Virus record (IMG/VR): IMGVR_UViG_3300045988_167837
Source: a virus
Lineage: Duplodnaviria; Heunggongvirae; Uroviricota; Caudoviricetes
Strand: one strand, 5' to 3'
DNA length: 59,942 nucleotides
Shown here: piece by piece, positions 27,991 to 36,114 of the stretch
Layout: the number at the start of each line of letters is the position of its first letter
How positions within the stretch are numbered: position 1 is the stretch's first letter
The notes under the pieces: generated by a model
Seen by the model: the letters and a program-made list of their open reading frames with translations, nothing else
Database searches by the model: none
Told to the model about the DNA's origin: nothing
Made by a program: the position numbers and the translations under genes

Positions 27991-30900
27991 CTACCTACCC
28001 ACCATTCGTTGCATACTTTGCGTCCACGAGGCTTTAAATGCTGAATCTCCTGCGAACAACTTGTAGAGCTCAAGTTCATCTTTACGGCGTTGCAGCATGA
28101 TTTCCTTGAGCATTTTTTCGAAGGCCAAATTTCGATTATGGGGATCTGGGTTGTTTTTGTATTTCGATTCGAAGTCAGGGTGATTGCGGATACTTTCAGC
28201 GATGTTCACGAACTTAACCTTTTGCTCTTCAGGTGTGGCACTCCAGCCCTGGAACCATCGCTCATTAAATGTGCGAATGATTTCATCCAGCGGGTCAGTT
28301 TCTTTTTCACCGCCATGCACCCCACGTGGGTTCGGATTTTGAGGATCAAGCTCCGCTTCTTGGTCACTAAGTTTAATGCTGTGGTTAAGCTTCACACGTT
28401 GCAAACCGTATGAACTCAGATCGACAGAATCGAGAAGCTCATCAATAGCATCAGCATCGGGATCTTCCACTTTCAATTTCGGTATTAAAAACTTCAGGAA
28501 CCAAAACAGTTTTTCCCAGCTGACCATTTCATAAGGCATGATAGAAGCCATCTGCCCATAGATTTTAACGAACTGTTTGGCTTTAATCTTAAAGTCCACT
28601 TTAGCTTCAGCTTCAAGATCTAGTTCATGGTCAAACCGCGCTGCGGCAATATCAATGATTGGACTGAGTGTTTGGGCGTCTTCATTCTTGAAATAACGCG
28701 TCACAAAGTCTTCAACTTCATACCACTCGTACACACCGACATCGTCCATTTCATCTTTCAACTCGTGCAGTACGTTTATATCTGTAGCTTGGGACAATGA
28801 CGTTGCTGTATAGAAAGGATCGAATGCTGATTGAATATCTTCAACCGAGTTGAAAAAATCCAGGATAAACAAGTCTTCTGTTTTCTTCCCTAGCTTAGGT
28901 GCACTGCGATTGAGCCTAGATAGCGCCTGAACACACAAGACACTGGCGAGCTTCTTATCTACATACATGGCGCAAAGCTTAGGCTGGTCAAACCCAGTCA
29001 GATACTTGTTAGCAACCACTAAAAGTCGATACTCATCGGTATCAAACATATCTTTGGTATCTGACTCGGCAAAACCATTAATATCTGCTTCGGTATATTC
29101 AATACCATCAACTTCTTTGGTTCCTGAGAAAGCAATGGCAACTTTAAACGGGTTTCCTTGCTCCTCAAGTATTCGCCTTATCGCTTTGTAGTATCGAATG
29201 GCCGCCTCAATATTTTGAGTGACCACCATTCCTTTACCTTTACCTTTGAGCTTTTTCGTATTCACGACATGCGGAACAAAATGCTCCAGCATAATCTCTG
29301 CCTTGATATCAATTGTTTGCTGGCTTCGTTCTACATAAGCTCTGAGTTTTTTCTGCGCCTTTTTGGTATCAAACTCAGGGTTATCAGCAATTGATTTCTC
29401 AATCTCATAATAACTTTTGTACGTCGTATAATTTGCCAGCACATCCAAGATGAAGCCTTCTTCAATGGCTTGTTTCATCGAATACAAGTGAAACGGCTTG
29501 TAAGAGCCATCTTCTTGGCGTTGACCAAATTTCTCCAAAGTGCTGTTTTTTGGTGTCGCTGTAAATGCCAGGTACGACGCATTCCCGCGCATCTTACGCG
29601 ATCTCATCGCCTGAAGGATTTTATCCTGAGCATCTTCTGCCTCTTCGACTTCAGACTTGCCCATCGCTCGGTTCATATTGTCATGCGCCGAACCAGACTG
29701 TGAGCTGTGTGCTTCATCGATGATCACTGCAAAGCGCTTGTCACTAAGATCGGCGATACCATCAATAATGAACGGGAATTTCTGAATCGTCGTTATAATA
29801 ATCTTTTTGCCATTCTCCAGCGCCTGCTTAAGCTCAGAAGACTTATTCGCTGGGGCAATAATGTTCTTTACTTCAGAAAACTCTTTAATGTTATCCCGCA
29901 GCTGCTTGTCCAATAGGCGTCTATCGGTGACCACAATCACAGAGTCAAACAACGGCTGCTCCAAGCTTTTTCCGCCTGCCACATCAGACGAAGCAGGATA
30001 GGTTTCAATTAGCTGATAAGCTGCCCAGGTAATCGAGTTAGACTTACCTGAACCGGCTGAGTGTTGAATTAAGTAAGTCTGACCGACACCGTGCTGGGCG
30101 GCATGGTCTACTAATTTTCTCACCACATCCAATTGATGGTATCGAGGAAAGAACAGGGTTCGCTTGGGTAATGGATCTTTGCTTGACCCATCCAGACGCA
30201 CAAAATGCTGAATAATATTCGCCAAGCTGTCTTTAGTGAATACTTCTTGCCATAGGTATGCCGTTTTATGGCCAGATGGATTCGGCGGGTTGCCTTGTCC
30301 AAGATTGTGACCTTTATTGAACGGCAAGAAGAATGTACTGCTACCTGATAACTTGGTGGTCATATACACTTCGTCGGTATCGACCGCCATATGCACTAGG
30401 CAGCGGCCAAAGGTCAGCAATGGCTGAGTTGCATCCCGATCATCTCGATACTGCTTTTGGCCGTGATAACGTGCTGTTTGCCCGGTCCATGCGTTCTTCA
30501 ACTCCAGCGTTATCAAGGGTATTCCGTTGATAAACAATACCATGTCGATTTCTTGTAGGGGATTTACCATGGAATAGCGCACTTGGCGAGTACAACTAAA
30601 CACGTTATCTGCAAAGTTTTGCTTTACCTTCTCACTACTACTTGCCAAAGGGGCTGGATAGAGCAAATTGAAATGAGCATCGTCTACGCTTAGCCCTTTC
30701 TTAAGTAAATGAAGAATGCCATGCTTCTTAATCAGTCGGTCAAATCGTTCGAGTAACTTACGTTGCCAATCTGAGGGGTTGTTCTTTTGCAGTTTGGCCA
30801 ACTCTACTTCTTGTGTCTTTTGCAGAAATTGCCAGAAAAAACGTTCATCAATGGCATATTGCATATTAAAGTCACTAGCAGCACCAATGAAGTATCCAGC

Positions 30901-31008
30901 ACCCAGTGACTGCTGACTCAGCCCCTCTTTGAGCTCTTCAGTACTGATCCCAGCCAGACATTTCTCAATGGCCGACTCTAATGCTTGTTCATTGGTTTGA
31001 CTGACCAT
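27991..31008 (-). CDS. hsdR: type I restriction enzyme R subunit
   Basis: 1005 aa; SF2 helicase motifs ([11 protein letters not shown]alker A, IIDEAH DEAH box); operon with hsdM/hsdS. Confidence 0.85.
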
Positions 31009-35956: not shown

Positions 35957-36114
35957 TTTCTTTTCCTGTTCAGTGTTGGTTGCACCCCACAAAGTTGCTG
36001 CAACGGCTTCACTATAAATTTAAAATTCTGTTCTTTCTGTAACGCCTAAATGGCCTCTACATCGTTCGATTAACTTGTTCTACCCGGCGCTAGATTTAAG
36101 TTTATGACACCATA

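Follow-up and report, generated by a model that had tools for sequence, protein, structure and literature searches.

What does a nuclease gene do inside a type I restriction-modification (R-M) operon, and does its product depend on the proteins encoded around it? The question is raised by IMG/VR virus record IMGVR_UViG_3300045988_167837, a stretch of 59,942 nt that we call the window; all coordinates given here are positions in the whole window (Table 1). The initial annotation, made from the letters of the sequence, had described the gene order hsdM-hsdS-X-hsdR on one strand, and the four open reading frames (ORFs) are indeed found in this arrangement, all on the minus strand. The analysis below points to X as a candidate antiphage nuclease that travels as cargo of the operon.

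Domain architecture and family of X

The X protein is predicted to consist of an N-terminal nuclease core and a C-terminal DUF4268 domain. The latter (PF14088) is matched by Pfam at 1.1e-39, with 136 bits against a gathering cutoff of 27, and the profile search proposed in the initial annotation, which had guessed a DUF4268-like family, thus returned the expected domain. The PADLOC profile of the PDC-S11 family, PDLC04913, aligns with X essentially from end to end (1.8e-182; residues 1-383 on profile positions 1-373 of 375). With a full-length profile match, the DUF4268 domain and the catalytic residues all in place, X has every feature expected of a PDC-S11/DUF4268 family member. The family is large: an exhaustive profile-free search retrieved relatives of X in 5541 representative clusters, 477 of them at E <= 1e-30, and most share the architecture of X and have a length of ~370 aa.

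Conservation was analysed in an alignment of 66 diverse homologues with 30-60% identity. Glu26, Asp63, Lys79, Gln90 and Tyr94 are invariant, and Glu77 is present in 65 of the 66 sequences; the catalytic glutamate falls at residue 77 in X, as it does in 49 homologues of the 66. The set E...D...ExK...QxxxY is the signature of RecB/NucS-type PD-(D/E)xK nucleases, and the earlier description of X as a PD-(D/E)xK nuclease agrees with the Asp63...Glu77-x-Lys79 motif. The nuclease core is the best-conserved region of the alignment and the DUF4268 domain is more variable, as would be expected if a catalytic module is combined with one for recognition. Some relatives (P0173, P0205 and P0228) contain three to five tandem DUF4268 domains in a single polypeptide; these tandem copies suggest a binding module that can be repeated.

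An AlphaFold2 model of X has a pLDDT (predicted local distance difference test score) of 94.2. In a Foldseek search, the predicted nuclease domain resembles EndoMS/NucS with a probability of 1.0. The predicted fold of the DUF4268 domain resembles the YbjN/type III secretion chaperone fold. A direct sequence search of the PDB with X gave no match, and we found no solved structure spanning the whole protein. Given the likeness of its catalytic domain to NucS, X could in principle be a housekeeping repair endonuclease of the NucS/EndoMS type that is carried by chance. We regard this as extremely improbable. The NCBIfam NucS model (NF003270) aligns only with residues 16-101 of X and scores 23.9 bits against an equivalog cutoff of 216, Pfam gives no NucS match at E <= 0.01, and the N-terminal domain of NucS is absent. 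Furthermore, the gene is patchily distributed and is found on integrative conjugative elements (ICEs), plasmids and a phage-plasmid. The initial annotation would have abandoned its proposal had X matched a housekeeping nuclease family; the weak NucS match, over the catalytic domain alone, is no such assignment.

X contains no Walker A motif and no ATPase domain, and the PADLOC PrrC profile does not match it. The initial annotation had concluded from the missing Walker A motif that X is not the anticodon nuclease PrrC, and this conclusion stands. The DUF262 (GmrSD_N) nucleoside triphosphatase (NTPase) domain and the DUF1524 His-Me nuclease domain are also both absent from X according to Pfam. 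Judged by these profile and motif comparisons, X falls outside the NucS, PrrC/RloC and GmrSD families.

The genes on either side of X encode the components of a type I R-M system, with predicted methylation and restriction activity. HsdM contains the Pfam domains N6_Mtase (4e-60) and HsdM_N (7e-23), as expected of a modification subunit, as well as the motifs DPACGSG (residue 229) and NPPY (residue 307), and matches the PADLOC MTase_I profile PDLC03029 at 2.4e-267, covering 14-810. HsdS matches the PADLOC Specificity_I profile PDLC03191 at 4.7e-126 over residues 3-439 of 443, and Pfam Methylase_S as well; it has the two target-recognition regions of a specificity subunit. HsdR combines an N-terminal PD-(D/E)xK nuclease with a superfamily 2 DEAD/H translocase (Pfam HSDR_N, SWI2_SNF2, ResIII and T1R_D3-like domains; DEAH at residue 431) and matches TIGR00348 hsdR at 2e-62. 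In the ORF listing, the hsdM stop codon overlaps the hsdS start, and the gaps between hsdS and X and between X and hsdR measure 9 bp and 14 bp, respectively. This spacing makes hsdM-hsdS-X-hsdR one tightly packed unit. A promoter scan of the leader upstream of the operon gave no strong sigma-70 match on the minus strand; the promoter and terminator scan found fewer promoter-like sites than shuffled sequence contains, and no site inside the operon that would convincingly serve as a promoter for X.

Compared with the copy of the operon found in ICEs (see below), the ratio of non-synonymous to synonymous substitution rates (dN/dS) amounts to 0.05 in both X and hsdR and to 0.04 in hsdM. The similarity of these values indicates that purifying selection maintains X as stringently as the R-M genes.

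Table 1. Positions of the operon genes, their domains and the module borders in the window.
Feature	Position	Strand	Description
IS911 remnant	27283-27976	minus	Terminal repeat at 27283 and transposase fragment; downstream module boundary past hsdR
hsdR	27991-31008	minus	Predicted restriction/translocase subunit, 1005 aa
X	31023-32186	minus	387 aa; predicted NucS-like PD-(D/E)xK nuclease with C-terminal DUF4268; PADLOC PDC-S11 family
X, DUF4268 domain	31071-31475	minus	Residues 238-372; putative substrate- or modification-recognition module
X, nuclease core	31887-32186	minus	Residues 1-100; E26, D63, E77, K79, Q90, Y94
hsdS	32196-33527	minus	Predicted specificity subunit, 443 aa
hsdM	33527-35956	minus	Predicted type I N6-methyladenine (m6A) methyltransferase subunit, 809 aa; annotated in RefSeq from the ATG at 35956
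hsdM, alternative start	33527-35992	minus	In-frame TTG at 35992, upstream of the RefSeq start; ORF of 821 aa
HsdM, C-terminal extension	33530-34489	minus	Residues ~490-809; ~320 residues
Operon upstream leader	35957-36187	minus	ICE homology from 36119; boundary shared with chromosomal E. coli copies at ~36187

Association of X homologues with type I systems

We surveyed the genomic context of X homologues at 80 loci on one-genome-per-species contigs, in which HsdM, HsdS and HsdR were detected by iterated profiles. The homologue lies inside a type I operon at 31 of these loci, or at 28 of the 55 that have at least 4 kb on either side, and the association of the family with type I operons therefore amounts to roughly 40-50%. 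When embedded, the gene is usually located between the M/S genes and R (26 of 31 cases), and in three cases it follows R. The embedding operons belong to divergent type I families: close relatives have an HsdM of 795-815 aa and the other operons one of 520-590 aa, with phmmer E-values of only 1e-20 to 1e-40. A Klebsiella plasmid provides a further example of an X homologue in a divergent type I operon.

The remaining 49 loci have no type I genes beside the X homologue. There is no recurrent neighbour at these stand-alone loci either, as no Pfam family occurs in more than three of the 149 neighbouring proteins, which include integrases, transposases, Mrr_cat proteins, AbiEii-like ATPases and products of housekeeping genes. 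A homologue with 51% identity to X is present on more than 200 Klebsiella plasmid records; on pc15-k (IncFII/IncFIB), the sole one of these that was inspected, it is located near repA with no type I genes nearby (locus L088, 6001-7182). X-family proteins, we conclude, have no obligate partner, which speaks against X being a masked effector of the PrrC kind and against its being an accessory subunit of the type I enzyme.

The hsdS-hsdR junction itself appears to exchange its contents. The sibling phage-plasmid pLAO4 has the same operon at the same backbone site (locus L002, 6651-10647), with X truncated after residue 177. After the truncated gene come two genes with a DUF262 annotation, the second of which is in addition labelled an HNH endonuclease. 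Their counterparts in Celerinatantimonas diazotrophica share 88-90% identity with them and lie, together with a full-length X, between hsdS and hsdR (locus L010, 7001-11507). Pfam assigns GmrSD_N and DUF7834 to the first protein of the C. diazotrophica pair, and GmrSD_N and GmrSD_C to the second, which by these domain assignments is the architecture of TgvAB. Other cargo beside X homologues in type I operons (loci L017, L018, L024, L025 and L061) comprises NERD-TOTE and NERD-UvrD helicases, Fic, and an AAA+ ATPase with a subtilase; a 1963-aa DUF4011/AAA_11/AAA_12/MTES_1575 helicase-nuclease is a further case. Because the slot also holds such unrelated genes (Fic, NERD-helicase, AAA-protease), the hsdS-hsdR junction qualifies as a cargo site. 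It trades defence genes, and would be a useful place to mine for new systems.

What X may do in this slot is suggested by two DUF4268 nucleases, MdgA and MdgB, that were recovered in functional metagenomic selections (PMC12366544, Cell Host Microbe 2025). MdgA (modification defence gene A) on its own protects E. coli against the phages T4 and Mu, and not against T4-GT7. The purified protein degrades T4 DNA, which contains glucosyl-hydroxymethylcytosine, far better than the unmodified DNA of T4-GT7, and the E77A mutation abolishes both defence and cleavage. MdgA homologues are widespread across many phyla, and the sequences have been deposited under BioProject PRJNA1262520 and Zenodo 15758252 (all PMC12366544). 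X combines the same two features, a DUF4268 domain and a nuclease domain with a glutamate at position 77. A second pointer comes from TgvAB, whose genes separate hsdS from hsdR in the type I operon of Vibrio pathogenicity island 2 (VPI-2) of V. cholerae; TgvAB is modification-dependent and acts independently of HsdR restriction activity (PMC11411939). DUF4268 has also been found fused to type IV enzymes of the GmrSD type (PMC4619093).

On this basis, the locus would be a complete, co-transcribed four-gene defence module composed of HsdM, HsdS, HsdR and an autonomous nuclease. X would act by itself as a type IV-like restriction endonuclease, with the DUF4268 domain steering it to hypermodified phage DNA, for instance DNA containing glucosyl-hydroxymethylcytosine. 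HsdR would cut unmodified invaders, and X would cut modified phage DNA that is refractory to the type I enzyme, the same division of labour as with TgvAB in the VPI-2 operon. The embedding of X would then provide co-expression and co-transfer, not regulatory dependence. X would have to tolerate the m6A introduced by its own HsdM, which fits its pairing with many HsdS specificities. We lean towards this reading of X as a modification-dependent, type IV-like, autonomous nuclease that complements type I restriction, drawing on the behaviour of MdgA and on the interchangeability of X and the GmrSD-like pair in the slot. The weaker claim, in which X is antiphage cargo with an autonomous nuclease activity, is considerably more likely than modification dependence.

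The initial annotation had gone further in one respect. It took X to be defence cargo embedded in a type I operon, as we do, and added that such cargo may be kept silent or tied to restriction status. In its strongest form, X would be a guard comparable to PrrC: a latent nuclease held by HsdMS(R), set free when Ocr, ArdA or a Stp-like protein disables the type I enzyme, and then killing the cell or degrading DNA. The hsdS-hsdR slot is the one used by PrrC and RloC in the prr and rlo loci, the 9- and 14-bp spacing is tight, and the preference for the position between M/S and R is strong, all of which would suit a guard. However, coupling is difficult to reconcile with the 49 of 80 genomes that have a homologue with neither type I genes nor a conserved partner, or with the stand-alone homologue on pc15-k; the obligate type I association that masks PrrC and RloC is thus not seen in the X family. 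X is also found with divergent type I families, and across hosts it stays 98-99% identical while HsdS varies in its recognition domains. Neither an ATPase nor a sensor domain is present in X. Finally, MdgA, the one characterised DUF4268 nuclease of matching description, acts as a single gene in vivo and as a purified protein (PMC12366544). We therefore consider regulation by the Hsd complex unlikely and do not retain this part of the proposal.

Alternatively, X may be an accessory subunit of the type I enzyme that works physically with HsdR or HsdMS, for example in end processing or by supplying a second cleavage activity. The apparent co-transcription, the conserved gene order and a selection pressure similar to that on the hsd genes are what one would expect of such a subunit. 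Yet the nuclease and motor domains of HsdR are intact, homologues of X commonly lack a type I neighbour, and the slot accommodates Fic, NERD-helicase and AAA-protease genes unrelated to X. An accessory role is accordingly rated as quite improbable.

Several points weigh against modification dependence and its derivation from MdgA. The YbjN/chaperone-like fold of DUF4268 is not among the folds known to read modified bases, such as SRA, EVE and YTH. NucS, the closest structural relative of the X core, is an enzyme acting on mismatched or branched DNA, not a reader of modifications. The recurrent location between S and R, in 26 of the 31 embedded cases, could reflect a functional link and not a convenient insertion site. 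X probably belongs to the MdgA family, an assignment made from the shared domain, the residue number and the published description, not from an alignment. X may be an abortive-infection nuclease or another nuclease that does not depend on modification, degrading host or phage DNA on a different cue (a phage protein, free ends or replication intermediates) in the manner of Shedu. This is possible, if doubtful, given that MdgA, the only DUF4268 nuclease tested, is a direct modification-dependent enzyme, that DUF4268 is linked to GmrSD type IV enzymes, and that the interchangeable cargo of the slot is GmrSD-like. The strong preference for the S-R slot and the lack of a known modified-base reader fold leave a little room for two more unusual readings. 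X may be wired to the operon as a built-in guard, with DUF4268 sensing the state of the Hsd complex or an anti-restriction protein, or DUF4268 may be a new reader fold for phage DNA hypermodification, which would explain the three to five tandem copies in other proteins. We hold that there is a slim chance of one or the other being correct.

Mobility of the operon and its setting in the phage-plasmid

The X protein is 97-100% identical in Vibrio, Proteus, Providencia, Morganella, Alteromonas, Marinomonas, Salmonella and others. Contigs encoding near-identical X have the same operon as the window, with an hsdM of 809-814 aa followed by hsdS, X and an hsdR of 1005 aa. In ICEs of the SXT/R391 group the operon is inserted between rumAB/mobI and traI, which is hotspot 5 of these elements. 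A gene for a BrxR/WYL-type regulator precedes hsdM there, and a cyclic-oligonucleotide-based antiphage signalling system (CBASS; SMODS and SAVED-HNH) follows the operon (loci L003-L005, ~5200-6140). The window and the ICE copies share 93% nucleotide identity in hsdM and 96% in X and hsdR. Their hsdS target-recognition regions differ, and only the central part of the gene (~32805-33007) and its 3' end can be aligned. Homology to the ICEs begins at 36119, and the BrxR-type regulator gene was therefore not transferred and is absent from the phage-plasmid copy. Without this regulator, control of expression may differ from that in the ICEs. Sequence identity across these hosts identifies the module as mobile cargo common to SXT/R391 elements, E. 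coli chromosomes and an SSU5-like phage-plasmid. The operon is already represented in RefSeq in dozens of genomes, where X is named 'DUF4268 domain-containing protein'.

The region 27000-36500 of the window is 100% identical to the SSU5-like phage-plasmid pSJC33-2 of E. coli SJC33 (NZ_CP080257.1, 113 kb). The genes flanking the operon are typical of SSU5-like phage-plasmids and encode a gp32-like single-stranded DNA-binding protein, a 5'-3' exonuclease, an intein-containing RecA-like recombinase, Rad50/Mre11-like proteins and a RepB initiator. Escherichia phages PhiR41_1 and Cyrano match the flanking DNA at 95-96% identity, and Salmonella phage SSU5 does so at ~83%. None of these three contains the segment ~27134-36200, and its absence from related phages indicates that the R-M module is an insertion. 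At least 80% of a 9.5-kb query is found in 52 of 5426 complete E. coli genomes, in sibling phage-plasmids and at chromosomal sites rich in insertion sequences (IS). Homologues of X are almost absent from phage records, with three weak partial matches; X is thus not typical phage cargo, phage-plasmids excepted. Surveys have reported R-M systems, PrrC and PD-T4-3 in phage-plasmids of the SSU5 group.

The module is bordered by IS remnants that form part of a mosaic. The IS911 remnant next to hsdR matches Pfam rve, is 98% identical to IS911 in the phage collection, and is a pseudogene in RefSeq. Insertion scars are present at 27180-27976 and 36187-36400, with truncated DUF7238 and SPFH backbone genes that RefSeq also lists as pseudogenes. 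We considered a composite transposon bounded by IS911, and rejected it: there are no terminal inverted repeats, and the best match, 20 of 40 bases, is at chance level. A 69-bp segment at 36134-36202 is 97% identical to Shigella phage SfIV and contains a 19-bp direct repeat, TTAAACCTGTGGCGATTCA. In several sibling phage-plasmids (for example p2017-01-4CC_1, locus L087, 1361-2869) a group II intron (ltrA) lies inside the IS911 remnant, beside hsdR and outside the operon.

Further features of the window lie outside the module. The RecA-like recombinase gene at 36675-39014 (minus strand) is split by a LAGLIDADG intein (Pfam RecA, Intein_splicing and LAGLIDADG_3), and RefSeq labels the whole ORF as a homing endonuclease. 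At 55200-59942 the GC content rises from ~43% to 60-66%. This block encodes a 988-aa transposase of the Tn3 family (55361-58327, minus strand) and an EAL/DUF3330 fragment (59067-59681), and has the appearance of a Tn21-type transposon insertion into the phage-plasmid. Four tRNA genes (Ser-TGA, Thr-TGT, Tyr-GTA and Asn-GTT) are located just ahead of it, at 54493-55146 on the minus strand.

The initial annotation had also drawn attention to an unusually long HsdM with a putatively helical C-terminal extension. Solved HsdM structures comprise 445-544 aa, apart from one weak match of 638 aa, and align only with residues 118-488 of the present protein. The C-terminal extension that follows matches nothing significantly in Pfam or in PDB sequence searches, and a single-sequence AlphaFold2 model of it has a pLDDT of 34.7. 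It is conserved in 1042 clusters (clustering at 90% identity), in which every source name among the matches listed is a type I M protein or a DNA methylase; the proteins come from Gammaproteobacteria, Flavobacteriaceae, Desulfomicrobium and others. The PADLOC profile PDLC03029 fits the long HsdM from end to end, and several further MTase_I profiles have 800-1200 positions. The observation of some 300 aa beyond every solved HsdM is thus correct. By sequence comparison, however, the extension is a trait of a large HsdM subfamily and not a peculiarity of this locus, and 'unusual' is not the right description.

Comparison with known systems

If X is MdgA-like, the operon is a natural and widely circulating case in which unmodified and hypermodified DNA are both restricted by one transcription unit, and the phage-plasmid arms its host against T-even-like competitors. 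The operon moves among SXT/R391 elements (in Vibrio, Proteus, Providencia and Alteromonas), E. coli chromosomes and SSU5-like phage-plasmids, and this mobility is of relevance to phage therapy and to gene flow in Enterobacteria. The concept itself is not new, as both the PDC-S11 family and the presence of type IV enzymes inside type I operons (TgvAB, RloF) have been recorded before. X fits the PDC-S11 profile from end to end; PDC-S11 has been a single-gene bioinformatic candidate without a published mechanism. To this family we add the catalytic motif, the predicted fold, the genomic contexts with the rate of type I association, and a probable characterised relative, and to the picture of the operon its transfer from ICEs to a phage-plasmid and the natural cargo swaps between hsdS and hsdR.

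The probable relative, MdgA, is like X a single-gene nuclease with a DUF4268 domain and a glutamate numbered 77, which in X is part of the ExK motif, and a wide spread is common to both. In contrast to X, MdgA came from a metagenomic insert and was not reported inside a type I operon. TgvAB occupies the same S-R slot of a type I operon. It consists of two proteins, with DUF262 NTPase domains and a His-Me (DUF1524) nuclease, whereas X is a single PD-(D/E)xK protein with no NTPase. PrrC and RloC are likewise extra effectors at the equivalent position, in the prr and rlo loci, but these are tRNA nucleases of the ATP-binding cassette (ABC) ATPase type under regulation by the Hsd complex; X is predicted to be a DNA-type nuclease and often occurs without type I genes. 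NucS/EndoMS has the same catalytic-domain fold and the same E...D...ExK...QxxxY motif set as X. Unlike NucS, X lacks the N-terminal DNA-binding/dimerisation domain, has an additional DUF4268 domain, and is encoded on mobile elements in defence contexts.

Besides the VPI-2 operon, a parallel to the proposed system is the immigration control region of E. coli K-12 (hsdRMS, mrr, mcrBC), where type I and modification-dependent restriction are also clustered and cover both modified and unmodified invaders. There, the type IV genes are neighbours with promoters of their own, whereas the X gene is located inside the operon.

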